Source: Rhynchopus sp. YZ270_cl-10 (taxonomy: Eukaryota). From it: a DNA stretch of 64,000 nucleotides. Every line of letters starts with the position of its first letter. Position 1 is the first letter of the stretch. Of the stretch, positions 3,713-61,562 are shown one piece after another. The DNA lies in contig OZ037835.1 in assembly GCA_964035575.1 (NCBI GenBank), positions 248,001-312,000 on the forward strand, given 5' to 3'. A program made the position numbers and the translations under genes. The notes under the pieces are model-generated. The model saw only the letters and a program-made list of their open reading frames with translations, did no database searches and had not been told where the DNA came from.

Positions 3713-4499
3713 AAAAGGGTCCTTATTTGCATTTTTGGGCTCCGCCCGTGCAGTGGTGGGGTCAATCTCGAAAATTGGACAATTTTTTGACCACTTAAAT
3801 TTTGAGAAATATGAGCCCGGTTGCTTATACGTGGGGCCCATTTTTGGCCAAAATTTTCCTCAAAATCTGGTTTTGTAAAATTGACCCTTTACTCCCCCCC
3901 CACATCGATTTCAATACTATACCTTACTTCACCTACGGTTGCCCTTACAGGGGGGGTGAAGGAAGGTAAGTTGAAAAGGGTCCTTATTTGCATTTTTGGG
4001 CTCCGCCCGTGCAGTGGTGGGGTCAATCTCGAAAATTGGACAATTTTTTGACCACTTAAATTTTGAGAAATATGAGCCCGGTTGCTTATACGTGGGGCCC
4101 ATTTTTGGCCAAAATTTTCCTCAAAATCTGGTTTTGTAAAATTGACCCTTTACTCCCCCCCCACATCGATTTCAATACTATACCTTACTTCACCTACGGT
4201 TGCCCTTACAGGGGGGGTGAAGGAAGGTAAGTTGAAAAGGGTCCTTATTTGCATTTTTGGGCTCCGCCCGTGCAGTGGTGGGGTCAATCTCGAAAATTGG
4301 ACAATTTTTTGACCACTTAAATTTTGAGAAATATGAGCCCGGTTGCTTATACGTGGGGCCCATTTTTGGCCAAAATTTTCCTCAAAATCTGGTTTTGTAA
4401 AATTGACCCTTTACTCCCCCCCCACATCGATTTCAATACTATACCTTACTTCACCTACGGTTGCCCTTACAGGGGGGGTGAAGGAAGGTAAGTTGAAAA
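3713..4499. repeat. Three identical tandem copies of a 261-bp unit
   Basis: The same ORF recurs at 3821, 4082 and 4343 (period 261; the third differs only where it runs out of the array). A single diverged copy lies at about 46650-46926. Confidence 0.95.
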
Positions 4500-5687: not shown

Positions 5688-5887
5688 GGGAAGGCTAGTT
5701 TTTCCATTTAATATTACAAAGTAACAATAAACCATTTTTTCCAGTGACGCCTCCTATGTAGCACGGAAAAACCGTTTTTCTGAATTGTCATTTATTGTTA
5801 CAACAAGGCGGACGTGCACATCCGAAAACACTTGCATTTGCATTTCCGGTATGCTTTGTAACATTAAATGGAAAAACGAGCCTTCCC
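5688..5887. mobile_element. Short MITE, GGGAAGGCT TIR family (internally deleted)
   Basis: GGGAAGGCTAGTTTTTCCATTTAAT...ATTAAATGGAAAAACGAGCCTTCCC, flanked by AAA on both sides; internal sequence is the inverse of 6307-6667. Confidence 0.7.
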
Positions 5888-7203: not shown

Positions 7204-10200
7204 CTAGACGCACCAACCCACCCCTCCCGTCTGGTCTGCGTGTGAAGGAGCTATAACTAATCCATTCCCGTGAAACACACTACTGCGACGACGCTGGGAT
7301 CGGGGGCTGTGCTGCCTGCCGTGTCGGGGGGCCTGCAGGGTGCCTCTTCCACGTCCACCTCCTCCGTCTGCTTCTTCTAAGTCGCGACCACTGATGCCTG
7401 TGGTGGTAGGTGCACTGCCACCACCGTAGATGGTAGCACTGCCCCCAGCCTCGTCGGCAAGAAATGAATCCCTCAGCCCTGCCACAAGAGGGGTGAAACT
7501 GTCCCTGTTATCCAGGAAGCCTTCACTGCCACGGCCGCGGGAGTGCGGTAAAAGATGTTTGGTGGGTGTGATGGGGACTTGCCGTGGTGTTTCATGTGCC
7601 CAGTTTTTTGGTGTAGGACAGCTCAAGAGCTCAAGACCGTTTTCGATGTCGACGCTGAGGAGCGAGGCATTAGGCATCTCGGCGCGGGTGTCGCTCTGCC
7701 GATCGGAGGTGTCTGACTGTGTGGTCTCGAGAATGCACCCACCTTGGGGATGTATGAGGAGGGCTGATTTGTTCAAAACGTCTTCCTGAAGGTTGCCCCT
7801 ACGTCCTGATGTGATGACGTATACTTCGGTAAGGATGTCTAAAGCAATTTTGACAACCAGAAGAATGAAGGCCACAGTCAGCAGCTTGGAGGAGACGTCA
7901 AACAGCCATGAGTCCAGCGTGGCCGTGTAGTACCCTGCAGCCATCACCACCATCGCGGCGAGCTGCGTGCCCAGGAGGAGGATGTCCAGCGCAGCATCCC
8001 TGGAGCGTGCGTGAGGCCAGAACAGACCTTCCAGCATCAGGAGAACTAAGAAGACAAGCCCAGAAGCCATCTTGACGTGCCCACACCCTTCGCTTGTCTC
8101 AGGCGCCGTGCTCTGAATCGCGCTCAGCGCGAAGGAAGAGACAAACTCGATAAGAAGAAACCACGTCGCGCCCTGCTTGTACGGGCGGATCACGGTGTAG
8201 CGCTGCACCCACATCGGGTTACGTTGCATGGACACCCACTCCCCTTCGCCTAGGAGCGAGATAAGTGCACGGTTCTGTCTTCCTTCCGCTCTCGCATACA
8301 CACCGTACGCAGGAACACCTTGAGTGATGGTGAGGTGCAACACCACAGGCACCACAGCGCACACCAGCAGAATAGCCACACCCACAGCAGCATGCCAGCC
8401 CTTCTCCGGGTAGAACACAAGCGACATGCCTGCAAGCGTGAGGCCTTGATAGAAGTATTGGAACACAAGCACCGGGGCGGAGGGGAGGCGCAGCAGGCCC
8501 ACTACGTCCAGATCCTTGAAGAAGGTGGGGAACAGGCAGGTCCCCACGACACGCACGACAGGCACCGCAACGAAGCAGGCAGCTATGAAGGTCGCCAGCA
8601 TCGCAATGTTGGCGGCAACGGCGCCGACGGGCTTGCTGTTGTCCAGCGAGAGGCCTGTGGGGTGCAGTGCCGTCGAGAGGTCGTGCGAGCAGCCTTTGCT
8701 CACCAAAGCCAGACGCAGTGCAGCACCACCGGAGAACCCCGCCGCTGAGCTTGCCACAGCGAGTGTCGTGGATGAGTCCTCAAACCCCATCAGGTCCACC
8801 ACCTTCACGTCTGCGATGCTCATCAGAGGCGGTGGTGCAGTGTCGTTCAGAGTGGCCACGAAGTCTGGTGCCACAGTCGCGTGAGGCACTGTGGTTTCGG
8901 GAACGTCTGTGGCAGGGAGTGCAGCAGGTGTGTAGGTCGTTGGTGTTGTGGTGTCCATGGGTGTGTCGGTGGCCAGTGGTGTGTAAGTAGCGGCGTAGAG
9001 TGGTGCTGCAGTGAGGGGTGTGGCCGTGTCTGGTGCAGGTGTCGGTGCTGTGGTGAGTGGTGGCAGGGTGGCAGGCGGGGATGTTGCTGGTGGTGCTGTT
9101 GCCGGTGCAAGCGTCGGAGGTGCAAGAGTCTCAGGTGCTTGTGTTTCAGGTGCCAGTGTGGCTGGTGACAAAGTCGGTGGTGGCAAGGTGGCTGGCGCTC
9201 CCGTCAGTGGTGGGTTCGTCACCGGTGCTGGTGTTGCAGGTGCTTGTGTCGGTGGTGCCGCTGTTGCTGGTGCCGGTGTAAGTGGTGCCAGTGTTGGCGG
9301 GGCTGGAGTCAGTGGTGCAGAGGTCGCAGGTGCCACTGTTGCAGGCACAAGTGTAGGTGGTGCCACTGTAAGTGGTGCAGATGTAAGGGGCGCCGCTGTT
9401 GCCGGTGCCGGTGTTGGTGGTGCCAAAGTTGCCGGCACTGGCGTTGGCGCCAATGTTGGCGGAGCGGGTGTTACTGGAGCTGTTGTAGGTGGTGCTGGCG
9501 TCTGCGGTGCTGGTGTCGGAGGCGCCACTGTCGGTGGTGCTGGTGTTGGTGGTGCCAGAGTTGGCGGTGAAGGTGTGGGTGCTAATGTTGGAGGTGCTGG
9601 CGTCGGAGGTGCTGGTGTTGGAGGTGCTGGTGTGGGCGCCAGTGTAGGTGGTGCCGGTGTTGGTGGTGAAGGGGTTGGAGGCGCGGGTGTGGGTGCCAAT
9701 GTCGGAGGTGCTGGTGTTGGTGGTGCTGGTGTCGGTGGTGCTGGTGTTGGTGGTGCCAAAGTTGGCGGTGAAGGTGTGGGTGCTAATGTTGGAGGTGCTG
9801 GCGTCGGAGGTGCTGGTGTTGGTGGCGCTGGTGTGGGCGCCAGTGTAGGTGGTGCCGGTGTTGGTGGTGAAGGGGTTGGAGGCGCGGGTGTGGGTGCCAA
9901 TGTCGGAGGTGCTGGTGTTGGTGGTGCTGGTGTCGGTGGTGCCGGTGTCTCTGCGTCGTACACAGCTTCGAAGATGCTGTTCCTGTTGCCGCCGCCGCAC
10001 TTTGCGGTTGCATCGCCGTCACACGTGCGCCAGCACTCCGTTTCTGAGTAACTGCCGTACGTACCGTACGTGTTGTCGCAGTAGCACTCACGATGGTACT
10101 GCAGACCGAAGTACCTGAAGGGCGCACCCGTCGCACTCGTTGTGCAGAACGACATACACTTGGCAGGCGAGTTGTACAGGCCTGTCTGCTCAGCATCCCC

Positions 10201-10347
10201 TGTCAGGTCACGTGCCGAGCTCACATCGCCGTAGCACCCTTGGTACACTGCCACGTACGTTGCCCCCTCGCACTGTGGCAGAGCCAGCAGGACGGCCACC
10301 GCACAGAGCACACCTCTCACACTGCTCATGTGCATATGCAATTGCAT
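7204..10347 (-). CDS. WSC-domain, PTPAP mucin-stalk, ~7-TM surface receptor (1047 aa)
   Basis: Signal peptide; WSC signature YQGCYGD...C...C...YFGLQY..ECYC...C...CDGD...KCGG..RNS; ~350-aa P/T/A repeats; seven hydrophobic segments; cytosolic tail. The exact start Met is uncertain (three in-frame ATGs). Confidence 0.92.
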   Translation of the reverse strand: MQLHMHMSSVRGVLCAVAVLLALPQCEGATYVAVYQGCYGDVSSARDLTGDAEQTGLYNSPAKCMSFCTTSATGAPFRYFGLQYHRECYCDNTYGTYGSYSETECWRTCDGDATAKCGGGNRNSIFEAVYDAETPAPPTPAPPTPAPPTLAPTPAPPTPSPPTPAPPTLAPTPAPPTPAPPTPAPPTLAPTPSPPTLAPPTPAPPTPAPPTPAPPTLAPTPAPPTPSPPTPAPPTLAPTPAPPTPAPPTPAPPTLAPTPSPPTLAPPTPAPPTVAPPTPAPQTPAPPTTAPVTPAPPTLAPTPVPATLAPPTPAPATAAPLTSAPLTVAPPTLVPATVAPATSAPLTPAPPTLAPLTPAPATAAPPTQAPATPAPVTNPPLTGAPATLPPPTLSPATLAPETQAPETLAPPTLAPATAPPATSPPATLPPLTTAPTPAPDTATPLTAAPLYAATYTPLATDTPMDTTTPTTYTPAALPATDVPETTVPHATVAPDFVATLNDTAPPPLMSIADVKVVDLMGFEDSSTTLAVASSAAGFSGGAALRLALVSKGCSHDLSTALHPTGLSLDNSKPVGAVAANIAMLATFIAACFVAVPVVRVVGTCLFPTFFKDLDVVGLLRLPSAPVLVFQYFYQGLTLAGMSLVFYPEKGWHAAVGVAILLVCAVVPVVLHLTITQGVPAYGVYARAEGRQNRALISLLGEGEWVSMQRNPMWVQRYTVIRPYKQGATWFLLIEFVSSFALSAIQSTAPETSEGCGHVKMASGLVFLVLLMLEGLFWPHARSRDAALDILLLGTQLAAMVVMAAGYYTATLDSWLFDVSSKLLTVAFILLVVKIALDILTEVYVITSGRRGNLQEDVLNKSALLIHPQGGCILETTQSDTSDRQSDTRAEMPNASLLSVDIENGLELLSCPTPKNWAHETPRQVPITPTKHLLPHSRGRGSEGFLDNRDSFTPLVAGLRDSFLADEAGGSATIYGGGSAPTTTGISGRDLEEADGGGGRGRGTLQAPRHGRQHSPRSQRRRSSVFHGNGLVIAPSHADQTGGVGWCV

Positions 10348-25092: not shown

Positions 25093-28000
25093 CTAGTCTA
25101 TGGTTGAAGGATCTATAACTAAGCTGTCCCTGTGAAGCACACTACTGCGACGACGCTGGGATCGGGGAGTAAGTTGCCAGCCGTGTCGGGGGGCCTGCAG
25201 GGTGCCTCTTCCACGTCCACCTCCTCCGTCTGCTTCTTCTAAGTCGCGACCACTGATGCCTGTGGTGGTAGGTGCACTGCCACCACCGTAGATGGTAGCA
25301 CTGCCCCCAGCCTCGTCGGCAAGAAACGAATCCCCCAGCCCCACAGCCAGAAGAGGGGTGAAACTATCTCTGCTCTCCCTGAAGCTTTCCCTGAAGCCTT
25401 CCCTGCCACGGCCGCGGGAGTGTGGTAAAGGACGTTTGGTGGGTGTGATGGGGACTTGCCGTGGTGTTTCATACAAAGAAACTTCACCGTTTTTTGGTGT
25501 AGGACAGCGCAAGAGCTCAATACCGTTTTCGATGTCGACGGTGAGGAGCGAGGCATTAGGCATCTCGGCGCGGGTGTCGCTCTGCCGGTCGGAGGTGTCT
25601 GACTGTGTGGTCTCGAGAATGCACCCACCTTGGGGATGTATGAGGAGGGCTGATTTGTTCAAAACGTCTTCCTGAAGGTTGCCCCTACGTCCTGATGTGA
25701 TGACGTATACTTCGGTAAGGATGTCTAAAGCAATTTTGACAACCAGAAGCATGAAGGCCACAGTCAGCAGCTTGGAGGAGACGTCAAACAGCCATGAGTC
25801 CAGCGTGGCCGTGTAGTACCCTGCAGCCATCACCACCATCGCGGCGAGCTGCGTGCCCAGGAGGAGGATGTCCAGCGCAGCATCCCTGGAGCGTGCGTGA
25901 GGCCAGAACAGACCTTCCAGCATCAGGAGAACTAAGAAGACAAGCCCAGAAGCCATCTTGACGTGCCCACACCCTTCGCTTGTCTCAGGCGCCGTGCTCT
26001 GAATCGCGCTCAGCGCGAAGGAAGAGACAAACTCGATAAGAAGAAACCACGTCGCGCCCTGCTTGTACGGGCGGATCACGGTGTAGCGCTGCACCCACAT
26101 CGGGTTACGTTGCATGGACACCCACTCCCCTTCGCCTAGGAGCGAGATAAGTGCACGGTTCTGTCTTCCTTCCGCTCTCGCATACACACCGTACGCAGGA
26201 ACACCTTGAGTGATCGTGAGGTGCAGCACCACAGGCACCACAGCGCACACCAGCAGAATAGCCGCACCCACAGCAGCATGCCAGCCCTTCTCCGGGTGGA
26301 ACACAAGCGACATGCCTGCAAGCGTGAGGCCTTGATAGAAGTATTGGAACACAAGCACCGGGGCGGAGGGGAGGCGCAGCAGGCCCACTACGTCCCGATC
26401 CTTGAAGAAGGTGGGGAACAGGCAGGTCCCCACGACACGCACGACAGGCACCGCAACGAAGCAGGCAGCTATGAAGGTCGCCAGCATCGCAATGTTGGCG
26501 GCGACGGCGCCGACGGGCTTGCTGTTGTCCAGCGAGAGGCCTGTCGGGTGCAGTGCAGTAGAGAGGTCGCGCGAGCAGCCTTTGCTCACCAAAGCCAGAC
26601 GCAGTGCAGCACCACCGGAGAACCCAACCGCTGAGCTTGCCACAGCGAGTGTCGTGGATGAGTCCTCAAACCCCATCAGGTCCACCACCTTCACGTCTGC
26701 GATGCTCATCAGAGGCGGTGGTGCAGTGTCGTTCACAGTGGCCACGAAGTCTGGTGCTGGAGTCGCGTGAGGCACTGTGGTTTCGGGAACGTCTGTGGCA
26801 GGGAGTGCAGCAGGTGTGTAGGTAGCTGGTGTTGTGGTGTCCATGGGTGTGTCGGTGGCCAGTGGTGTGTAAGTAGCGGCGTAGAGTGGTGCTGCAGTGA
26901 GGGGTGTGGCCGTGTCTGGTGCAGGTGTCGGTGCTGTGGTGAGTGGTGGCAGGGTGGCAGGCGGGGATGTTGCTGGTGGTGCTGTTGCCGGTGCAAGCGT
27001 CGGAGGTGCAAGAGTCTCAGGTGCTTGTGTTTCAGGTGCCAGTGTGGCTGGTGACAAAGTCGGTGGTGGCAAGGTGGCTGGCGCTCCCGTCAGTGGTGGG
27101 TTCGTCGCCGGTGCTGGTGTTGCAGGTGCTTGTGTCGGTGGTGCCGCTGTTGCTGGTGCCGGTGTAAGTGGTGCCAGTGTTGGCGGGGCTGGAGTCAGGG
27201 GTGCAGAGGTCGCAGGTGCCACTGTTGCAGGCGCAAGTGTAGGTGGTGCCACTGTAAGTGGTGCAGATGTAAGGGGCGCCGCTGTTGCCGGTGCCGGTGT
27301 TGGTGGTGCCAAAGTTGCCGGCACTGGCGTTGGCGCCAATGTAGGAGGTGCTGGTGTCGGCGGTGAAGGGGTTGGAGGCGAAGGTGTGGGTGCCGGTGTC
27401 GGAGGTGCTGGTGTTACTGGCGCTGGTGTAGGTGGTGCTGGCGTCTGCGGTGCTGGTGTCGGAGGCGCCACTGTCGGTGGTGCAGGTGTTGGTGGTGCCA
27501 AAGTTGGCGGCGCAGGTGTGGGTGCCAATGTTGGAGGTGCTGGTGTCGGCGGTGAAGGGGTTGGAGGCGAAGGTGTGGGTGCCAATGTCGGAGGTGCTGG
27601 TGTTGGTGGTGCCGATGTTGGAGGTGCTGGTGTAGGTGGCGCGGGTGTTACTGGCGCTGGTGTTGGTGGTGCTGGTGTAGGCACCAGTGTTGGTGGTGCT
27701 GGCGTCTGCGGTGCTAGTGTCGGAGGCGCCACTGTCGGTGGTGCTGGTGTTGGTGGTGCCAAAGTTGGCGGTGAAGGTGTGGGTGCTAATGTTGGAGGTG
27801 CTGGCGTCGGAGGTGCTGGTGTTGGTGGCGCCGGTGTGGGCGCCAGTGTTTGTGGTGCCGGTGTTGGTGGTGAAGGGGTTGGAGGCACAGGTGTGGGTAC
27901 CAATGTTGGAGGTGCCGGTGTTGGTGGTGCTGGTGTCTCTGCGTCGTACACAGCTTCGGAGACGCTGTTCCTGTCGTTGCCGCCGCACTTTTCGGTTGCA

Positions 28001-28323
28001 TCGCCGTCACACGCGAAGGAGCACTCTGTGTCTGAGAAAATGCCGTACGTACCGTACGTGTTGCCGCAGTAGCACTCACGGTAGTACTGCAGACCGAAGT
28101 ACCTGAAGGGCGCACCCGTCGCAGTCGTTGTGCAGAACGACATACACTTCGCATGCGTATTGTACAGGCCAGTCTGCTCCGCATCCCCTGAAAGGTCACG
28201 TGCCGTGGTCACATCGCCGTAGCACCCTTGGTACACTGCCACGTACTTTGCCCCCTCGCACTGTGGCAGAAGCAGCAGGACGGCCACCGCACAGAGCACA
28301 CCTCTCACACTGCTCATGTGCAT
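25093..28323 (-). CDS. WSC-domain, PTPAP stalk, ~7-TM surface receptor, paralog 2 (1076 aa)
   Basis: Same architecture as 7204-10347; flanking DNA is also duplicated. Confidence 0.92.
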
Positions 28324-30143: not shown

Positions 30144-31386
30144 TCATTCCATCATTGCTGGTGGCCCAAGAAGATTATCCTGTTCACGAAACCACTCTGT
30201 GAGAAGATTGTTGCAGGCTTCAACATCTTCGTGGCTACATCCCTTTCCCCCTCCAGCTTGGCCCAGGTCTAGGTCAGAGCGTAACGGTGGGTGGTGATGA
30301 TCTCCACCTCGTTCCAATAGGATTCTTCTAATTTTCTCCGTCTCCAACACTGTCTTCCGCACAACCGACAAGTCCTTCTCAGCTCTCTGTGAGTGTATGT
30401 AAGATAAATGACAGTAGTAAAAAACAAGAAAAACTAAACTAACGTTTTGCCAGTTGATTTGCCCTCACAAATCTACTACGTGTGACTTTTTTCGTTGACC
30501 GCAGCACGTCAATACACTGTGCATCAAGGAACACACATGTTGCGAATGGGTGACACTGGGAAGAGAAAATAAAAAGGTGCGTGTGAATAGCAAGGGTCAT
30601 ACGTTTGCCTTCTCCTTGAACTTAGAGATCATGGCACGGTACATGTTGGCCTCGCTATCATCTCCAACATAGACACCACGCTCAGCAGCCTTAGTGTCAC
30701 CACAAAGTTCGCAAACACGACAAACTAACAAATTCGTTATGTCAGTGATCTTCGTATTGCGCGTCGAAAGCCGAGCCTCCAGATGCGCCTTGTACGTTTG
30801 GGCATTTCCAAGTCCGTCAGAGCGTAACGGTGGGTGGTGATGATCTCCACCTCGTTCCAATAGTATTCTTCTACATGTCTCCCTCTCCAACACTGTCTCC
30901 CGCACAACCGACAAGTCCTTCCTAACTCTCTGTAAGTGTGTGCAAAATAGGTGCAAAAAGCAAGTAGACCACTCGCCGTGCCTCCAAAAGGTCTCATGTT
31001 CCCTACGCCACACAGACAGTACAACCACATGTAATGACTCAACTCAAAGGGTGAGTGAATAGAAACTACAAAGAGCTCTACACACGACACACATGTTGTG
31101 AATGGGTGACACTGGGAAGAGAAAATAAAAAGGTGCGTGTGAAAAGCAAGGATCATACGTTTGCCTTCTCCTTGAACTCGGAGATCATGGCACGGTACAT
31201 GTTGGCTTCCTCATCCTCTCCAACATAGATACCACGCTCAGCAGCCTTAGTGTTTCCACGAAGGAAGTGAACACGACCAACTAACAAATTCGTTTCGTCA
31301 GTGATGTTCGTCTTGAGCGCCAAAAGCTCAGCCTGCATATGCACCACGTAAGGATCAGGTGCCACACAGTTGGTGTAGTAAGACAT
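30144..31386 (-). CDS. Predicted 3-exon coiled-coil protein of unknown function (~265 aa; exons 31386-31159, 30929-30603, 30386-30144)
   Basis: Phase-0 introns GTATGA...ACAG at 31158-30930 and 30602-30387 join EFKEKAN|RVRKDLSVV and EFKEKAN|RAEKDLSVV in frame. Confidence 0.7.
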
Positions 31387-31944
31387 ACTTAAAGGGAATG
31401 GGTAAGGATAGGGAACGAGAGAGAAGGGGTTGCACTTCCTGTGGGTGGGTTGATGACATAATATGTGTGGGGGGGATGCTCTTTTGCATCCTTTGTTTTC
31501 ATCCCTAACTTTCAACAAACATGCCCCTCAGCACTTCAGCAGTTGTAGAACGTTTTCCTACCTTTGGAACAGGAGCACACAAGTTCGTATATATATTGGA
31601 TGCACCATGTGTGCAACACCACCCATCGTCTGATAACAACCTTCGGATTCCCAACACACTTACTTCTGCAACACATCACAGTCACCATCTTGCTCCCAAC
31701 ACTTCCACTTGCACTGACGTCTCTTGTCGTGGTGGAAGGTCCAGCAGCAGTATCTTGGGTTTGTGCAACCAAGTTGTAAAGCCACCAAGCAACGCCCTGG
31801 ACACCTGGACCCCCCTTTTCCACCTTCGTACTTCATTGCAAGAAGGTGGATTACAAAACAGAAGGGTTTCGCTTTGTGTGCATTTTGTTTTGGTGTTTGT
31901 ACTGTATTGCATCTATCTTTACGTATATTCCCGCATGAGTGGCT

Positions 31945-32373
31945 TCAAGACAGGTGTGAGATGTCAACAATCTCAACACTCCCATGCCCTTCGTAGACCA
32001 CCACACCACCACAGCTGCTGATTGCAAGACTGTTCTTTTGGCTGCTCTCCTGCTGCAAGAGTTGCTTCCCTGTTGAGATGGACCACAGACACAACGTATC
32101 AAAAGAGTGGGCAGCAACAATGTCGTTCGACACAGCAATATCACCCCAGACGTTTTCTGAGTCGTTTTCAAATACACATTCACCTGTTTCGATGTTCCAG
32201 ACACGCACATAGTGCTCGCAACACGCTGCAATGAAACGCTGGTTTGGTGTCAGTGCTACGTAATCAACATGAGAAGGGCACGTAAGTACAAGCACCTTCA
32301 CCCCTGTTGTGTAGTCCCACACAGTGATGTCACGATTAACAAACGTCGCCACCCTGTCGCCTGACACCACCAT
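31945..32373 (-). CDS. WD40-like repeat protein or terminal exon (142 aa)
   Basis: ITVWDYTTG, VRVWNIETG and LCLWSISTG at about 40-aa spacing; pyrimidine tract + AG just upstream; too short for a full propeller. Confidence 0.65.
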   Translation of the reverse strand: MVVSGDRVATFVNRDITVWDYTTGVKVLVLTCPSHVDYVALTPNQRFIAACCEHYVRVWNIETGECVFENDSENVWGDIAVSNDIVAAHSFDTLCLWSISTGKQLLQQESSQKNSLAISSCGGVVVYEGHGSVEIVDISHLS

Positions 32374-32581
32374 GACGTACTTGCACACAAGAGAAGAGAG
32401 GGGGAAGAGAGTAGCAAGCTTGTGTAGTGGCAGGAAAGTGTGAAATACATGGCACGTAGTACGACCGCAGAAAACTACGCCATGGTCAACGATTAAGTGT
32501 AACTCATTTTGTTTTTACTTTATTTTATATTTCTCGGAAACGGCAGGCAGTGTGCACGAAAAGGATCAAGGTATCATTCTG

Positions 32582-33270
32582 TCATTGCATGGGCCCAAGA
32601 ATATCCTGCTGCAAGATTAAAAAATCTGTGAGAAGATTGTTGCAGGCTTCAACATCTTCGTGGCTACATCCCTTTCCCCCTCCAGCTTGGCCCAGGTCCA
32701 GGTCAGAGCGTAACGGTGGGTGGTGATGATCACCACCTCGTTCCAATAGTATTCTTCTAATTCTCTCCCTCTCCAACACTGTCTCCCGCACAACCGACAA
32801 GTCCTTCCTAACTCTCTGTAAGTGTGTGCAAAATAGGTGCAAAAAGCAAGTAGACCACTCGCCGTGCCTCCAAAAGGTCTCATGTTCCCTACGCCACACA
32901 GACAGTACAACCACATGTAATGACTCAACTCAAAGGGTGAGTGAATAGAAACTACAAAGAGCTCTACACGACACACATATTGTGAATGGGTGACACTGGG
33001 AAGAGAAAATAAAAAGGTGCGTGTGAAAAGCAAGGGTCATACCTTCTTGTCCTCCTTGAACTCGGAGATCATGGCACGGTACATGTTGGCTTTGCGATCA
33101 TATCCAACATAGATACCACGCTCAGCAGCCTCAGTATCACCACAAAGGGCGCAAACACGACAAACTAACAAATTTGTTTCGTCAGTGATCTTCGTATTGA
33201 GCGTCGAAAGCTCAGCCTCAAGACGCGCCACGTCACGCTCAAGTGCCACACAGTTGGTGTGGTAAGACAT
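32582..33270 (-). CDS. Predicted 2-exon coiled-coil protein (~153 aa; exons 33270-33043, 32815-32582)
   Basis: Intron 33042-32816 GTATGA...CTTACAG joins EFKEDKK|RVRKDLSVVRE in frame; paralog of 30144-31386. Confidence 0.7.
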
Positions 33271-40732: not shown

Positions 40733-41385
40733 GAAAGCTCGTGTGGTATGTGGGTTCTCGAGTTTACGGGTTGTGTTCAACCCAGCACGCTCGTGGGTTT
40801 TATATGGTACGCAGGCTGACCAGAACCCCGAGAACCCACATAAAACCCACGAGCATGCTGGGTGAACTGCAAACCCGAGAACCCGCAAACCCACATACAA
40901 CATGAGTGTGCTTGTCAGCCAGACACTGCCACGAGAACACAACCACAATTGCCTGGGTCTGAACTGTCTTTATCAAAACGTTTTGGGACCACTGTCCAAA
41001 AACCACACTTAGTGGGCCAGACTGTCCTTATCCCTAGGAAAGCATTTTGTCTACCCTTACGGAAAAGCAACGATAAAAGACCACACAATCAGGCCATATT
41101 GCAGCTGAAGTGCATACTGCATGATACATTAGTTAAAACAAAAATTGATAGAATAAAAGGGGGACGTGTGCATTCAGCAAGAACTTTGCTTTTCTGTTGG
41201 AAAACAGAAACCAAAACATTGATGCGGGGAAAGACAATTTATTTTTAAAATTTTAAAAAAAAAAACCTCCCCAACAATATTTAGTGAAAAAAAAAACCCT
41301 CCTTTCGCTGTTTAGAATCAACAGAGGCGTAAAGGTTTTAGAATTTGACATCCTACTTACTAGCATTGCCGGCTGACGCACCCGG

Positions 41386-43977
41386 CTAGTGCATGTCCAC
41401 AACCTCTGGTACGTAGGCCTTCTCCTGCACGTACCTGATGAGCTCTTCGTACTGCCCACGTTGGTCAGCAGCCACACCCTCAAGCAGAGCAGAAGCCTGT
41501 CCAAAGTCCTGTTTGATGATGTTCTCAAAAGCTTCGGTCCACAGCGCATGAGGGTTGTTTGCTGCCGACTCCAGCTGGTACATCCACTCCTCGTTCGCCA
41601 CACTGCACAAACCCTTCACAGCGTACACAACCTGTGCCTTGTCACTCAGCTTTGCGAACAGCACCGCACCTGCACAACGCAGTACCACTTGTCCCTCCAC
41701 CTCACGTGACACAGCACGATCAATGACACCAGGCAGGTTGTGCTTCTTGTTCCAACGCTCAAGCACAACCACCCACGACATGGACTGTGCAAGAATCGAC
41801 ACCTTCTTCATCCCGTTGCAGCCCATGTTCCCGACACGTGCCTCGCCTGTCGTGCACCCGTACGAGATCTTGTGCACATCACCAAGTGCTGTTGCTGCTT
41901 CATGTGCAGACTTCACACAGGCAGCACGGTGTGAAGTGCTCGGAACAAAGGCGTTGAAGGTGGCAAGCATCTTGTCCCCTGCGAACGTGTCGCACACACC
42001 TTTGTTGTGCTGCACTGCCACCAGGATCCTCTCCATCACACCACCGTGTGCAGCGAGAACTTCTTCGTCTTTGCGGTTCTTGCAGAAGTCATGCCACGAC
42101 ACGACGTTCATGTGTGCCAGCGACACCTTCTTCTTCTTCAGACCCTCCACACGCAGCAGTGCCTTCTGTGTCTGCATCACCTCTTCGGAACTTTGCGCGT
42201 GCGACAAGGCAGACTGAGAGTTGGAAACCCGTGTGGCCGAGTCTGTGCCAGAGACTTCTTCGCTCTGTTCACTGTCGTTGACAAGCACACTCTGCGGCAT
42301 GTAGTTCCGGTACTCCACCAGGTTCGCCACCATGGTAACAAAGCTGCGCTGCATCATCCCCACTTCACTCAGCTGCGACACTGCACGGCCCGTGTCCACA
42401 GCCTCCAGGTCCATCACAGCCACACTTGCCATCTCACTCCCAAGCCTCAGCAGAGGGGACGTGATGTAGCGTGTGAACACAACAGCAACGGCCAGGAGTA
42501 CCGTGATCGCAATGACTGTGACAACCACCATCACAATCACCGCATCCTCCTTCTGTGCGTCTGCAGAGGACAGATCTGATGCCACCTTCGCACGGATTGC
42601 ATTCGTCGACGCATCAATTGTCTCCATCACAGACGCCCTCGGCACAAGAAGGTTGGCAAAAAATTTAATCGTTTTGTGTTCAATTGTCGACGTGATTGTC
42701 CAGAACTCCGTGCCGTTCGAGTCAGACCACTTCAGGAAGGAGTCCTCTGTCTTCTCCGCAAGGTCTCTGTAGTTCTGTGGGTGTGTGAACACAAACCGTC
42801 CGTGCTCTGCAATCACTGAGGGGATGTGCGACGTGGCGTCTTCCATTGAGTGGTTCGTTATGTTGAAGCCAACCGCAATGTCAAGCATGCCCAGTTCGGT
42901 TAGCGTGGGCACCGTCCAAAGCAGCCGTCCTCTGTTGTACGCGACAACTGTCCCCACTGAGCCCGATGCACGGTCCTCCTCCACCAGGTACAGAGAAGTG
43001 TCCGTCGGGAGCAGCTGTGCACGCACTGCGTCGGTCACCCCGTCCGCAGTCACCATCGCTGCGATAACACCCACACGCTTGCCCTGCTTGGGGTACATCG
43101 TGTACATATCTGGGTGGGTGTAGGTGTAGCTCAGCTCCCATAACATGATGCCCCACTGAAGTTGCATGTGTGTGTAGACAAGCGTATCTGCAGGGTTCAG
43201 TGGTGGCTCGTCGGCACCCAGGTAGTACATCTGTCTCCCACGCTGGGCAGCTGACGCGTCGCCCGAAACCGATTCAGTCACCGTTTGGGGGAACAGGCAC
43301 ATCCCGATTACCTCACCCTTCTCGTAGTCAGGACCCATGGTGCATGGCTCAGAGCTGTACTTGATGTTTCCCAGCGGGTCGACTTCCGTGAAGAGCACCC
43401 AGTCACTCAGTCCATACGACATCGTTATGTGGTCACGTGTCTCGAACCCTGCAAAGATTGTGGTGCCATTAGGCAGAGATTGATTGGCAAAAAACGAGAA
43501 CTGCGAGCCCCACCCTGCAAACCCGTCACCCCTCTTCCACGGAACAGGATGTGCCGCACACCACGGGTACGTTTCGTGAGTCATCTGGAAAACCCCAGAC
43601 GCCAACCCAGGCACAAAAGCAGACAAGACTGCAGGACGCATTACTGAACCAAAGTCGGGGCTCGTGCTGACGTTTGGGTGGTGTGCCTTCGCCAGGGTGG
43701 CCAGCGTCACCACAAGCTGCTCAGGCACCTTCAGGTACTCCTTCACCGCTGTGTCCACGTTGCCAAGGACGGAGCGCAGGTAGCGTGCTGAGACTGTTTC
43801 GATGTCTGTGGTACCACTGTCGAGACACATCCCAAAGCCCTCGTCACCTGTGTCACGTGCCTTCTCCAGAAGGTCGTCCCATGTTGTCAGAGTGAAGCCA
43901 CCGATGATCGCACCTGTCGACAGAATCAGCACCACACACAACAGCACTGTCAGCGACTGGATGCCGCATGACACCAT
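41386..43977 (-). CDS. Receptor-type class III nucleotide cyclase-like protein (TM - ectodomain - TM - HAMP - degenerate cyclase), 863 aa
   Basis: Two TM helices; HAMP ITSPLLRL...SEVGMMQRSF..M; YRNYMPQSV linker; cyclase motifs CDTFAGDKMLATFNA and TGEARVGNMG. Confidence 0.88.
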   Translation of the reverse strand: MVSCGIQSLTVLLCVVLILSTGAIIGGFTLTTWDDLLEKARDTGDEGFGMCLDSGTTDIETVSARYLRSVLGNVDTAVKEYLKVPEQLVVTLATLAKAHHPNVSTSPDFGSVMRPAVLSAFVPGLASGVFQMTHETYPWCAAHPVPWKRGDGFAGWGSQFSFFANQSLPNGTTIFAGFETRDHITMSYGLSDWVLFTEVDPLGNIKYSSEPCTMGPDYEKGEVIGMCLFPQTVTESVSGDASAAQRGRQMYYLGADEPPLNPADTLVYTHMQLQWGIMLWELSYTYTHPDMYTMYPKQGKRVGVIAAMVTADGVTDAVRAQLLPTDTSLYLVEEDRASGSVGTVVAYNRGRLLWTVPTLTELGMLDIAVGFNITNHSMEDATSHIPSVIAEHGRFVFTHPQNYRDLAEKTEDSFLKWSDSNGTEFWTITSTIEHKTIKFFANLLVPRASVMETIDASTNAIRAKVASDLSSADAQKEDAVIVMVVVTVIAITVLLAVAVVFTRYITSPLLRLGSEMASVAVMDLEAVDTGRAVSQLSEVGMMQRSFVTMVANLVEYRNYMPQSVLVNDSEQSEEVSGTDSATRVSNSQSALSHAQSSEEVMQTQKALLRVEGLKKKKVSLAHMNVVSWHDFCKNRKDEEVLAAHGGVMERILVAVQHNKGVCDTFAGDKMLATFNAFVPSTSHRAACVKSAHEAATALGDVHKISYGCTTGEARVGNMGCNGMKKVSILAQSMSWVVVLERWNKKHNLPGVIDRAVSREVEGQVVLRCAGAVLFAKLSDKAQVVYAVKGLCSVANEEWMYQLESAANNPHALWTEAFENIIKQDFGQASALLEGVAADQRGQYEELIRYVQEKAYVPEVVDMH

Positions 43978-54788: not shown

Positions 54789-55745
54789 TTACGAAACACT
54801 GCAGCAAGGCAAGGTTGCTTTCGTCTTGTCGCTGCTACGTGTCGGAGGTGCGTCAACCACATACTCCTTCAGCTTGGCTTCACGTACTCGACTGGACACA
54901 GCACTGCTGCAGCCGGCAAGGTGGATGTTCCTCAACCAAGTGTCGTGGTAGTTCGTACGTATCTCACCCATGTGCGTAACATTGCGGAGTGGCGACAGGT
55001 CTAGTCCTGTGAGGTTGCTGCAGTTGTCGAGAAAGCTTGTACCAATGCTTGTAACATTGTTGAGTGGTGATAAGTCCACTTCTGTGAGGCTTCTGCAGAA
55101 GGCAAGAAACTCGTCATCAATGTGAGTAACATTGCTGAGTGGTGATAAATCCACTACTTTGAGGCTGCGACAGTAGGCAAGAAAGCTTCCATCAATTTGT
55201 GTAACTTTGCGAAGTGGTGATAAGTCCACCGCTGTGAGGCTGCTGCAGTAGTAAAGAAAGCCGGTACCCACCCGCGTGAGACTGGTCAACCCAGAAAGGT
55301 CGATGCTCGTCAACGATGTGCACCCGTAAAGGAAAGTGTCACCAACTTCCGTCACACACGACACAGCACTCAGATCAAGTGTTGTTATCGATTGACGCGC
55401 CAAGAATCCTCCCGGAATAACAGTCGCAACCTCCGCCTGCAGAAGCAAACACGCCACCTCAGCATCCTCCACAGTCGCCAGCCTCTCTGCTGTGATGTCC
55501 TCACCCAACGCATGAAGTGCTGCTCTGGCCATGAACTTCTTACTTTCCGTCAGGATGATTGTGTCTCCAGCACTCAGCTGCGTGATGTCGTCTCCTTCCT
55601 CCTTCCCTCCGAAGCCCATGTGGAAGCTGTCCTCAGCCAACCCCACTGCAGACGCCACCTTCTGCCGCATCGTCTCCGTTGTGTCATCCACACCCACCTC
55701 GATCACATACGAGTTGTCTGCACAGTCCTTGATAACTACTTCCAT
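54789..55745 (-). CDS. UBL-LRR protein with CCSVS tail, 318 aa
   Basis: MEVVIKDCADN-type UBL, LSPL-type LRRs, terminal PCCSVS. Confidence 0.92.
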   Translation of the reverse strand: MEVVIKDCADNSYVIEVGVDDTTETMRQKVASAVGLAEDSFHMGFGGKEEGDDITQLSAGDTIILTESKKFMARAALHALGEDITAERLATVEDAEVACLLLQAEVATVIPGGFLARQSITTLDLSAVSCVTEVGDTFLYGCTSLTSIDLSGLTSLTRVGTGFLYYCSSLTAVDLSPLRKVTQIDGSFLAYCRSLKVVDLSPLSNVTHIDDEFLAFCRSLTEVDLSPLNNVTSIGTSFLDNCSNLTGLDLSPLRNVTHMGEIRTNYHDTWLRNIHLAGCSSAVSSRVREAKLKEYVVDAPPTRSSDKTKATLPCCSVS

Positions 55746-56288: not shown

Positions 56289-57554
56289 TTACGAAACACT
56301 GCAGCAAGGCAAGGCTGCTTTCGTCTTCCATCTGCCACGTGTCGGAGGTGCGTCAACCACATACTCTTTCAGCTTGCATTGACGTACTCGACTGGACACA
56401 GCACTGCTGCAGCCGGCAAGGTGTATGCTCCTCAACGAAGTGTCGTGGTTACTCACATCCATAGATTGTAGCTCACCCATGTGCGTAACATTGCGAAGTG
56501 GTGACAGGTCGAGTTCTGTGAGGCTGGTGCAGTGTGCAAGAAAGCTTGTACCAATGTGTGTAACATTGAGAAGTGGAGATAAGTCCACTTCTGTGAGGCT
56601 GCTGCAGTGGCCAAGAAACCAGTCGTCAATGTGAGTAACATTGCTGAGTGGTGAGACGTCTACTGCTGTGAGGTTTCTGCAGTGGTAAAGAAAGCATGCA
56701 CCAAGCCCAGTAACATTGCTGAGTGGTGATAAATACACTACTGTGAGGCTGCTGCAGTAGGCAAGAAACCAGCCATCAATGTGAGTAACATTGCAAAGTG
56801 GTGATAAGTCCACTGCTGTGAGGCTGCTGCAGTGGGCAAGAAATTTGGTACCCATGTGAGTAACATTGCGAAGTGGTGATAAGTCTACTGCTGCGAGGCC
56901 GCTGCAGTTGTAAAGAAAGTGTGTATTAATATGTGTAACATTGCGAAGTGGTGATAAATCCACAACTGTGAGGCTGCTGCAGCTGGCAAGAAAACAGTCA
57001 TCAATGTGAGTAACATTGCGAAGTGGTAATAAGTCCACTGCTGTGAGGCTGCTGCAGTTGCTAAGAAAGTTGGTACCCACCCGCGTGAGACGTGTCAACC
57101 CAGACAGGTCGAGGCTTGTTAACGTTGTGCACCCGAAAAGGAAATTGACAGAAATTTCCGTCACACACGACACAGCACTCAGATCAAGCCTCGTTAACGA
57201 TGAACGCGCCAAGAAGCCTCTCGGAATGACAGTCGCAACCTCCGCCTGCAGAAGCAAACACGCAACCTCAGGAACCTCCACAGTCGCCAGCCTCTGTGCA
57301 GTGATGTCCTCACCCAACGCATGAAGTGCTGCTCTGGCCATGAACTTCTTAGTTTTCGTCAGGATGATTGTGTCTCCAGCACTCAGCTGCGTGATGTCGT
57401 CTCCTTCCTCCTTCCCTCCGAAGCCCATGTGGAAGCTGTCCTCAGCCAACCCCACTGCAGACGCCACCTTCTGCCGCATCGTCTCCGTTGTGTCATCCAC
57501 ACCCACCTCAATCACATACGAGTTGTCTGCACAGTCCTTGATAACTACTTCCAT
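56289..57554 (-). CDS. UBL-LRR protein with CCSVS tail, 421 aa
   Basis: Same architecture as 54789-55745, with more repeats. Confidence 0.92.
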   Translation of the reverse strand: MEVVIKDCADNSYVIEVGVDDTTETMRQKVASAVGLAEDSFHMGFGGKEEGDDITQLSAGDTIILTKTKKFMARAALHALGEDITAQRLATVEVPEVACLLLQAEVATVIPRGFLARSSLTRLDLSAVSCVTEISVNFLFGCTTLTSLDLSGLTRLTRVGTNFLSNCSSLTAVDLLPLRNVTHIDDCFLASCSSLTVVDLSPLRNVTHINTHFLYNCSGLAAVDLSPLRNVTHMGTKFLAHCSSLTAVDLSPLCNVTHIDGWFLAYCSSLTVVYLSPLSNVTGLGACFLYHCRNLTAVDVSPLSNVTHIDDWFLGHCSSLTEVDLSPLLNVTHIGTSFLAHCTSLTELDLSPLRNVTHMGELQSMDVSNHDTSLRSIHLAGCSSAVSSRVRQCKLKEYVVDAPPTRGRWKTKAALPCCSVS

Positions 57555-58143: not shown

Positions 58144-59722
58144 TTACGAAACACTGCAGCAAGGCAAGGCTGCTTTCGTCTTGTCTCTGCCACGTGTCGG
58201 AGGTGGAGGTGGAGGTGCGTCAACCACATACTTCTTCAGCTCGCCTTCACGTACTCGACTGGACACAGCACTGCTGCAGCCGGCAATGTGGATGCTCCTC
58301 AACGAAGTGTAGCTGTTAGCAGGTAGCTCACCAAAGTGCGTAACTCTGCTGAGTGGTGACAGGTCTAGTTCTGTGAGGCTTGTGCAGTCAGAAAGTAAGT
58401 TTGTACCTATTTTTGTAACATTGCGAAGTGGTGATAAGTCCACTGCAGTGAGTCTGCTGCAGCCGGCAAGAAACTGGTCATCAATTTGTGTAACATTGCG
58501 AAGTGGTGTTAAGTCGACTGATGTGAGGCTGCTGCAATGGTCAAGAAAGCTTGTGTCAATGTGAGTAACACTGCGAAGTGGTGATATGTCCACTGCTGTG
58601 AGGCTGCTGCAGTAGGCAAGAAACCGCTCATTAATGTGTGTAACATTGCGAAGTGGTGATAAGTCGACTGTTGTGAGGCTGCTGCACAAGGCAAGAAACC
58701 AGCTATTAATTTGTGCCACACTGCTGAGTGGTGATACGTCTAGTTCTGTGAGTCTCCTGCAGTTGTAAAGAAATCTTGCACTAATGTGAGTAACATTGCG
58801 AAGTGGCGATAAGTCCAGTACTGTGAGGCTGCTGCAGTAGGCAAGAAACAGCTCACTAATGTGTGTAACATTGCAAAGTGATGATAAGTCTACTGTTGTG
58901 AGGCTGGTGCAGTGGGAAAGAAACCGGTCATCAATTTGAGTAACATTGCGAAGTGGTGATAAGTCGACTGCTGTGAGGCTGCTGCACAAGGCAAGAAACC
59001 AGCTATTAATTTGTACCACACTGCTGAGTGGTGATACGTCTAGTTCTGTGAGTCTCCTGCAGTTGAAAAGAAATCTTACACTAATGTGAGTAACATTGCG
59101 AAGTGGCGATAAGTCCACTGCTGCGAGCCTGGTGCAGTCGGAAAGAAAGCTGTTACCTATCCGGGTGAGACGTGTCAACCCAGAAAGGTCGAGGCTTGTT
59201 AACGTTGCGCACCCGTGAAGAAACGCATCGCCAATTTCCGTCACACAGGACACAGCACTCAGATCAAGTGCTGTTAACGCTGTCTGTGCCAATGGTGTGC
59301 GCGCCAGGAACCTATTCGGAATGACAGTCGCAACCTCCGCCTGCAGAAGCAAACACGCCACCTCAGCATCCTCCACAGTCACCAGCCTCTCTGCAGTGAT
59401 GTCCTCACCCAACGCATGAAGTGCTGCTCTGGCCACGAACTTCTTACTTTTCGTCAGGTGGGGGCCCGTTTTCGATGCATGCACCCCTATCCGAGATAGG
59501 TGATACAATACATCGCTTACTTTTCGTCAGGATGATTGTGTCTCCAGCACTCAGCTGCGTGATGTCGTCTCCTTCGTCCTTCCCTCCGAAGCCCATGTGG
59601 AAGCTGTCCTCAGCCAACCCCACTGCAGACGCCACCTTCTGCCGCATCGTCTCCGTTGTGTCATCCACACCCACCTCGATCACGTACGAGTTGTCTGCAC
59701 AGTCCTTGATAACTACTTCCAT
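58144..59722 (-). pseudogene. UBL-LRR-CCSVS gene interrupted by a 73-nt insertion (pseudogene or non-canonical intron)
   Basis: 57 unique nt (59459-59515) between 16-bp direct repeats CTTACTTTTCGTCAGG (59443-59458, 59516-59531); removing 73 nt restores a 501-aa ORF. Confidence 0.85.
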
Positions 59723-60683: not shown

Positions 60684-61562
60684 TTACGAAACACTGCAGC
60701 GAGGCAAGGCTGCTTTCGTCTTGTCTCTGCCACGTGTCGGAGGTGCGTCAACCACATACTTCTTCAGATTGCCGGAACGTACTCGACTGGACACAGCACT
60801 GCTGCAGCCGGCAAGGTGGATGCTCCTCAACGAAGTGCAGATGACAGCAAGGCGCTCACCAAAGTGCGTAACTCTGCTGAGCGGTGACAGGTCTATTTCT
60901 GTGAGGCTGATGCAGCCGGCGAGAAAGTTAGTGCCGATTTCAGTAACATTTCTGAGTGGTGATAAGTCCACTACTTTGAGGCTGCTGCAGCCGGCAAGAA
61001 AGTGGTCATCAATTTGTGTTACGTTGCAAAGTGGTGATAAGTCCACTGCTGTGAGGCTGACGCAGTGGGCAAGAAAGTAGAGACCAATCCGGGTGAGACG
61101 TGTCAACCCAGACAGGTCGATGCTCGTCAACGATGTGCACCGGTGAAGAAACTTATCACCAATTTCCGTCACACAGGACACAGCACTCAGATCAAGTGCT
61201 GTTAACGATGTCTGTGCCAAGAAATTGTTCGGAATGACAGTCGCAACCTCCGCCTGCAGAAGCAAACACGCCACCTCAGCATCCTCCACAGTCACCAGCC
61301 TCTCTGCAGTGATGTCCTCACCCAACGCATGAAGTGCTGCTCTGGCCTCGAACTTCTTACTTTTCGTCAACACGATTGCGTCTCCAGCACTCAGCTGCGT
61401 GATGTCGTCTCCTTCGTCCTTCCCTCCGAAGCCCATGTGGAAGCTGTCCTCAGCCAACCCCACTGCAGACGCCACCTTCTGCCGCATCGTCTCCGTTGTG
61501 TCATCCACACCCACCTCGATCATGTACGAGTTGTCTGCACAGTCCTTGATAACCACTTCCAT
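60684..61562 (-). CDS. UBL-LRR protein with RCSVS tail, 292 aa
   Basis: Start placed at MEVVIKD (ATG 61562) by homology; the ORF-track N-terminal extension is probably UTR. Confidence 0.9.
   Translation of the reverse strand: MEVVIKDCADNSYMIEVGVDDTTETMRQKVASAVGLAEDSFHMGFGGKDEGDDITQLSAGDAIVLTKSKKFEARAALHALGEDITAERLVTVEDAEVACLLLQAEVATVIPNNFLAQTSLTALDLSAVSCVTEIGDKFLHRCTSLTSIDLSGLTRLTRIGLYFLAHCVSLTAVDLSPLCNVTQIDDHFLAGCSSLKVVDLSPLRNVTEIGTNFLAGCISLTEIDLSPLSRVTHFGERLAVICTSLRSIHLAGCSSAVSSRVRSGNLKKYVVDAPPTRGRDKTKAALPRCSVS

Follow-up and report, generated by a model that had tools for sequence, protein, structure and literature searches.

The insertion and its host gene

The window studied here is the whole 64,000-nt stretch of contig OZ037835.1 from Rhynchopus sp. 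YZ270_cl-10 (positions 248,001 to 312,000), and all coordinates are counted from its first letter. On its minus strand, a gene of the BspA-type LRR family is interrupted by 73 nt. The features of the locus are as follows.

58144–59722, minus strand: host gene for a BspA-type LRR protein (PF13306), frameshifted by 73 nt and otherwise intact
59516–59531, minus strand: upstream copy of the 16-bp target-site duplication (original coding sequence), from repeat comparison and paralogs
59459–59515, minus strand: copy of a mobile element, 57 nt (58–59 nt if the next C or CC is included)
59473–59515, minus strand: predicted RNA stem-loop of 43 nt, with 19 pairs (3 of them G-U) and a 3-nt loop; its foot is the 5' end of the element
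59459–59472, minus strand: 14-nt 3' tail, a C-run and then CCA at the end, without poly(A)
59443–59458, minus strand: downstream copy of the duplication, beginning at the presumed first nick
59443–59506, minus strand: hypothetical GT-AG intron of 64 nt, from the GT at 59506 to the AG at 59443, which on paper would restore the frame and add 3 codons

Positions 59443–59458 and 59516–59531 form a perfect direct repeat of 16 bp, with no further matching letters at either border, and the two copies enclose the 57 nt of 59459–59515. Both the duplication and the insert agree to the letter with a preliminary description of this DNA. In 64 kb of random DNA, such a 16-bp repeat with copies no more than 600 bp apart would occur with a probability of about 0.008. 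After removal of the 73 nt, the first 330 nt of the gene aligned without gaps to four paralogs in the window at 97–98%, and these four carry the empty site. The low chance of the repeat and the gapless alignment show that the 73 nt are an insertion. The 16-mer target occurs in single copy in the paralogs at 55539–55554, 57348–57363 and 61356–61371, with 0–2 mismatches. The first one or two C of the downstream duplication copy may be shared with the 3' end of the element. No second copy of the element was found within the 64-kb window, and the window's own 5' junction (59521–59531) had no cover in the four public runs used for junctions; the exact locus was thus not met in them, and such a gap is no evidence against it.

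The N-terminal domain of the host gene is assigned to the ubiquitin Pfam family (PF00240) in some paralogs. Judged by its sequence, the window copy is young, with a core identical to a high-depth public contig and no other stop in the gene. The gene that it interrupts, which is one of a large LRR family, is most likely inactivated.

Reading frame and splicing

The preliminary description had stated that exact removal of the 73 nt restores the frame. This was borne out: the resulting frame of 501 codons (501 aa) is free of stops, and the unspliced gene stops at codon 93. Removal of the insertion from the mRNA would also account for its recurrence in coding sequence. Splicing could proceed exactly, as for a non-canonical intron, or through an internal GT and the duplicated AG, which would take out 64 nt and leave three extra codons. 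We consider either form quite improbable. The restored frame speaks for it, as does one register with the ends CG..AG, which PMC12621601 gives among the commonest hemistasiid intron ends. The duplicated target also offers a CTGAC branch-point-like word and an AG, and the remainder of the gene is intact, although a young insertion would be expected to leave it intact anyway.

The pairing of the ends argues against splicing. Paired intron ends are presented in PMC12621601 as a general property of diplonemid non-canonical introns, and in the 9+9-nt test of that study the ends of the insertion scored 0 in 16 of the 17 registers and 0.33 in the remaining one. The non-canonical intron that had been proposed earlier thus lacks its defining feature. 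For conventional introns, exact removal has 17 possible registers and gives GT-AG ends in none of them, in line with the earlier statement that no such pair at the repeat boundaries restores the frame; that statement has to be qualified, because 18 GT-AG pairs away from the edges work on paper. With 18 such pairs near the site, any one of them is not special. The donor is unlike the GTATG that PMC12621601 reports for Diplonemidae, the acceptor reads AAG instead of CAG, and use of a closer AG would not keep the frame.

The first minus-strand frame of the element is free of stops over its 19 codons, and copies whose length plus duplication is divisible by three would add an in-frame peptide. Comparison of the translated element with 187 stored proteins gave only one 8-residue chance match. 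A protein search with residues 53–92 returned 21 candidates, none of them at E ≤ 1; as it missed even the known paralogs, it carries no information on this point.

Dispersed copies in public contigs

Eleven public runs share words with the region, the best of them 63%. These runs appear to be DNA, given that their long unique contigs have an even depth. Copies and junctions of the element were read from the contigs of runs X1–X4 and X6; X7 gave no contigs, which does not show that the element is absent there. Over 59330–59650, the depth of the insert in X1–X4 was far above that of single long contigs. Within the 89-base target, depth climbed at 59458–59460 and dropped at 59513–59515 (X1 and X3).

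In X1, 44 contigs match the 89 bases. Among the eight X1 pieces listed, four are long contigs (422–2719 nt, depth 66–114) that carry the whole element with 2–5 differing letters, and their flanks are unlike those of the window. Another piece has the element at the contig end, one is ten letters short on the 3' side, and the remaining two are short contigs. One of these two, 47 nt long and identical to 59466–59512, has a depth of 6000, which is 53–91 times that of the four long contigs; such a depth cannot be read as a number of copies, and this value may partly reflect one high-copy replicon, for example mitochondrial DNA. About ten or more loci were seen directly. The element is also present in four contigs of X6, which belongs to another study, and it was found at other loci in runs from three studies altogether (X1, X3 and X4; X2; X6). 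Two X6 contigs end on one locus, and a word of 18 bp is common to their loose ends; this is a second duplication of another length. The duplication is fully readable at two loci only, in the window (16 bp) and here (18 bp). A copy number of about 84 estimated from one X6 contig was rejected, since it depends on assumptions and the data could equally be a 5-copy continuation.

Five contigs run on past 59515, and they agree with a score of only 0.51; 2–3% of the matched sequence runs on unlike. No shared upstream body was seen among the 12–13 partial contigs per run. Longer copies of the element are rare or absent from the contigs sampled, which is compatible with a rare long parent. The insert belongs to a multi-copy dispersed family with fixed ends, and it is not a single captured RNA end.

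These data bear on a one-off copy of a viral RNA end, which the preliminary description had offered as one source, and on an assembly error. Some RNA viruses have C-rich 3' ends, which would suit the tail of the element. The occurrence at other loci in three studies speaks against both a viral copy and an artefact. Viral contigs gave no 20-mer match, and all 16 of the 15-mer matches failed to extend (6–16 of 42 letters alike outside the seed); the collection is an incomplete test for RNA viruses. The searches therefore lent no support to a viral source, and we judge a viral copy or an assembly error to be extremely unlikely. Metagenomes gave no 22-mer match and four 19-mer matches, in which 5–10 of 36 upstream letters were alike, as by chance. 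There was no 21-mer match in prokaryote genomes.

Fold and ends of the element

The minus-strand RNA of the element was predicted to fold at −23.4 kcal/mol with a z of −2.84 (1 of 200 shuffles as good), and its first 43 nt gave a z of −5.39 (0 of 200). The z of the plus-strand RNA was +0.46. Three of the 19 pairs in the hairpin are G-U. Folding of both strands favours the minus-strand RNA only, which upholds the hairpin of RNA type with G-U pairs that had been described for this strand.

The element had also been said to end in CCA. The CCA is there, but its position as the end partly depends on where the boundary is placed, as the next C often matches. The base after CCA is 59458, a C on the minus strand. 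At least 51% of the depth in X3 and at least 61% in X1 agree with it, against 25% by chance. Where the duplication is 18 bp long, it does not include the C that follows the terminal A, and some copies have two C after CCA. From the C outside the 18-bp duplication and the 51–61% of matching depth, we take the constant 3' end of the element to be CCA plus 0–2 C. This is the whole tail seen, with neither poly(A) nor a tandem-repeat tail; it could be part of a CCA repeat.

At the other end, loose ends fall at 59513, 59514 and 59515, which is the foot of the hairpin with a variation of 1–2 nt, and one contig lacks 7 nt of the 5' end. Two contigs with loose ends at 59470 and 59483 lack part of the 3' end, so the polarity of the truncations is not clean.

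Target preference

In addition to the junction in the window, as many as seven further types, with differing flanks, place the 3' end of the element at this codon in LRR paralogs. One of these was read directly from a loose end, and six were reconstructed by combining table rows that had the same depth, in different runs. It is possible that some of them are duplicates of one older insertion copied with the gene. At 5–10 bases past the 3' end, 4–8% of the element depth matches the window flank, compared with less than 0.7% for random flanks. For an assumed copy number, paralog number and genome size, uniform insertion would give 0.001–0.003 expected hits at this site over 300–1000 paralogs. 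Under the same assumed values, insertion restricted to R-T^S-Y-T-G-A would give 0.6–2. Three 3' junctions outside LRR genes were resolved; one of them fits this motif, another fits it roughly and the third does not. Complementarity between target and RNA end amounts to at most two shared C at the window site, and there is none at the 18-bp locus; 2–18 nt are expected of tailless retropseudogenes.

Mechanism and source of the element

The insertions have duplications of variable length within 8–30 bp (readable at two loci), dispersed copies and empty homologous sites, as expected for target-primed reverse transcription (TPRT), whose duplications are given as 8–30 nt in PMC5322556. TPRT is favoured by the long duplications of differing length, the ragged 5' end, the strand-specific RNA fold and the absence of terminal inverted repeats. 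The earlier idea of a retro-copied RNA end therefore stands as far as TPRT is concerned, but the event was not a one-off. The preliminary description also held that a match to a plain DNA repeat would refute an RNA origin. That rule does not work, because a retroposon family is itself a DNA repeat.

A 3' stem-loop is described as the feature recognised in stringent LINEs and their SINEs (PMC3747384, PMC4176376), and about 2500 retroelement gene models are counted in a diplonemid genome (PMC10161547). From the signs of TPRT, the stem-loop and tail form and the diplonemid retroelement frames, we concluded that the element may be the recognition end of a LINE-type element. On balance we lean towards the reading that the insert is a copy from a dispersed 57–59-nt family with fixed ends, which was likely pasted by TPRT and is likely a 3' stem-loop and tail recognised by a LINE-type reverse transcriptase. 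The minus strand would be the RNA. An endonuclease with a loose preference for about R-T^S-Y-T-G-A on the sense strand would nick the opposite strand, and the freed 3' OH would prime copying from the 3' end of the RNA (CCA plus 0–2 C). Copying would stop at the hairpin foot, and a second nick 16–18 bp away would yield the duplication. The enzyme and the source sequence would both stem from a non-LTR retrotransposon at another genomic site. A short template may account for the fixed 5' end, either a processed LINE RNA or a stub master copy. It counts against a LINE source that neither a parent LINE nor a reverse transcriptase was found in 59 frames of the window, that no shared upstream sequence was seen among the contigs sampled and that poly(A) is absent. 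Pfam assigned no reverse transcriptase, endonuclease or transposase to these 59 frames, which comprise 56 of the 70 intergenic frames of at least 110 aa and 3 genes; the 14 frames excluded were mostly simple-repeat or gene-overlapping.

The main rival to the LINE-tail reading is that the same route used a stand-alone small RNA without LINE ancestry as the template. This would be a structural RNA of the host or of an organelle, or else a self-contained micro-SINE, which ends in CCA(CC) and was copied whole, without a tail. A second CCA can be added to the 3' end of an RNA, and this would suit the 0–2 C after CCA. The uniform ends and the missing A tail favour such an RNA: old copies have the same fixed ends as young ones, and the listed contigs share no continuation. 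Tailless retropseudogenes as characterised in PMC5322556 likewise have duplications of 8–35 nt and no A tail. The tailless copies published there are, however, 3'-truncated known RNAs primed at A-rich stretches, and the end of the element is unlike theirs. Comparison with Rfam at E ≤ 10 gave four rows, all at chance level and far below the gathering score, and no ribozyme family. Since no RNA family and no tRNA matched, and the tRNA geometry and Pol III boxes described below were poor, we regard a stand-alone small RNA as possible but doubtful.

The preliminary description had likened the 3' end to that of tRNA-Pro. In a tRNA, 16 nt are expected from the T-loop to the 3' end. The element has 11 nt after its T-loop-like word and 3 of 5 T-stem pairs, so the T arm fails. 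ARAGORN found no tRNA in the element or in the window. The likeness to a tRNA was thus contradicted by geometry, ARAGORN and Rfam. On the minus strand, which is the folding strand, the Pol III A box and B box each differ from the consensus at 2 positions; on the plus strand they differ at 1 position each, and B comes before A. A SINE was rejected because there is no head from tRNA, 7SL, 5S or snRNA (Rfam, ARAGORN) and no ordered Pol III boxes. A hammerhead was considered as well, as the target has CTGACGA and GAAA follows the hairpin; the spacing and the closure of the stem fail. Simple descriptors, used with no positive control, detected no hammerhead or HDV-like core on either strand or in tandem.

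A bolder proposal, somewhat less credible to us than the stand-alone template, is a self-contained RNA parasite of 57–59 nt without a LINE, tRNA or 7SL body, promoter boxes or an A tail. Its CCA(CC) end would prime directly, and it would home to a short motif and repeatedly disrupt one LRR family.

Insertion at the DNA level is improbable, whether of a MITE-like hairpin, of mitochondrial DNA or of a fragment taken up at staggered breaks. In its favour, the first 43 nt are an imperfect palindrome, and the core with the high depth may come from an organelle. Diplonemid genomes are noted in PMC10161547 for many NUMTs and for dispersed repeats that are unexplained. Against this, the palindrome ends 14 nt short of the 3' terminus, where the tail begins, and the element has no terminal inverted repeats. 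Folded as DNA it was no better than its shuffles (z −0.80). The duplications of 16 and 18 bp are long and of two lengths, not short and fixed; those of the introner and MITE cases treated in PMC11282704 are 3–5 nt. Capture at breaks would not yield identical ends at many loci.

Comparison with known systems

Close parallels are 5'-truncated copies of stringent LINEs and LINE-tail SINEs (ZfL2, UnaL2 and plant L1/RTE pairs), which share a stem-loop with a short tail, long variable duplications and some target preference (PMC3747384, PMC4176376, PMC6007223). The element differs from them in that no parent was found, in its near-uniform 5' start among the listed copies and in having no poly(A) or clear tandem-repeat tail. 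The upstream T-stretch described for RTE (PMC6007223) is absent at the site in the window. Tailless retropseudogenes, which PMC5322556 describes in therians and lizards, share with the element the missing A tail, a duplication of 8–35 bp and a short structured RNA. Their source RNA is known and their priming internal and A-rich, whereas no source was found for the element in Rfam and its end is C-rich.

Among short SINEs, Platy-1 is likewise short and multi-copy with a duplication of about 15 bp (PMC4864456). It is given there as the shortest primate SINE, at about 100 nt; the element, at about 58 nt, is about half that length, and unlike Platy-1 it has no A tail, no convincing A/B boxes and no 7SL, tRNA or 5S head. 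The trypanosomatid RIME, NARTc, SIDER and CRE/SLACS elements, as outlined in PMC12278014, share the euglenozoan non-LTR route, duplications and site preference. INGI-type elements have a 77-nt 5' signature and poly(A), and CRE has poly(A) and targets the spliced-leader gene (PMC12278014); the element has neither poly(A) nor that target. Non-canonical introns of euglenids and hemistasiids and introners are also structured coding inserts with flanking direct repeats (PMC12621601, PMC11282704). Compared with the cases in these two sources, the ends of the element are unpaired, terminal inverted repeats are missing and the repeat is much longer. From these comparisons, the element appears to behave like a LINE-mobilised retroposon, yet it is excluded from the SINEs by its lack of a head, boxes and an A tail, and it is a putative LINE fragment.

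We found no description of the element or of the 15-letter top of its hairpin in the literature searched, which left most subscription papers outside. The supplements of PMC10161547 searched gave no match; its Additional file 1, with a repeat section that may bear on novelty, lay outside that search. Rigorous identification of mobile elements in diplonemids is still due according to PMC10161547, and the element is too short for most repeat annotation to detect. A tailless family of 58 nt with fixed ends would define the minimal RNA needed by a non-LTR reverse transcriptase, and with its recurrent hits at one codon as markers, the turnover of a large family of LRR genes could be followed. If a parent LINE is found, the family would be an extreme case of hairpin-foot stubs. 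If it is true that no parent exists, it would be a new kind of minimal retroposon, among the smallest, and a new class of template for TPRT.

Other features of the window

At least ten intronless LRR genes or fragments lie on the minus strand between 11936 and 64000. Further members of the family are numerous on other long contigs from this source (1036 proteins at E ≤ 0.001). An LRR paralog at 14139–15846 is 97% like the disrupted gene over its first 330 nt, and its start is out of frame with the LRR ORF at 14139–15470. Its repeats apparently belong to another subfamily, and it is possibly broken or chimeric.

A 16-letter word like the 3' end of the element was seen on the plus strand at 3833, 4094, 4355, 22487 and 46771, with a period of 261 bp over 3833–4355. 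The likeness is limited to that word and is probably due to chance in low-complexity sequence.

Large predicted membrane proteins with long Thr-Pro-Ala-Pro repeats are encoded at 7204–10347, 25093–28323 and 1–1152. The 863-aa protein at 41386–43977 is cyclase-like and belongs to a large paralog family; among its 67 matches, the only named relative is from Rhynchopus euleeides, at 36% identity. A perfect 45-bp inverted repeat with a 5-nt spacer lies at 23026–23120, and further MITE-like inverted repeats are at 24198–24348, 5688–5887 and 40738–40906. Tandem arrays of 14 bp and 8 bp, and a duplication spaced by 556 bp near WD40-like fragments, were observed at 20500–20870, 23604–24050 and 30660–33200.
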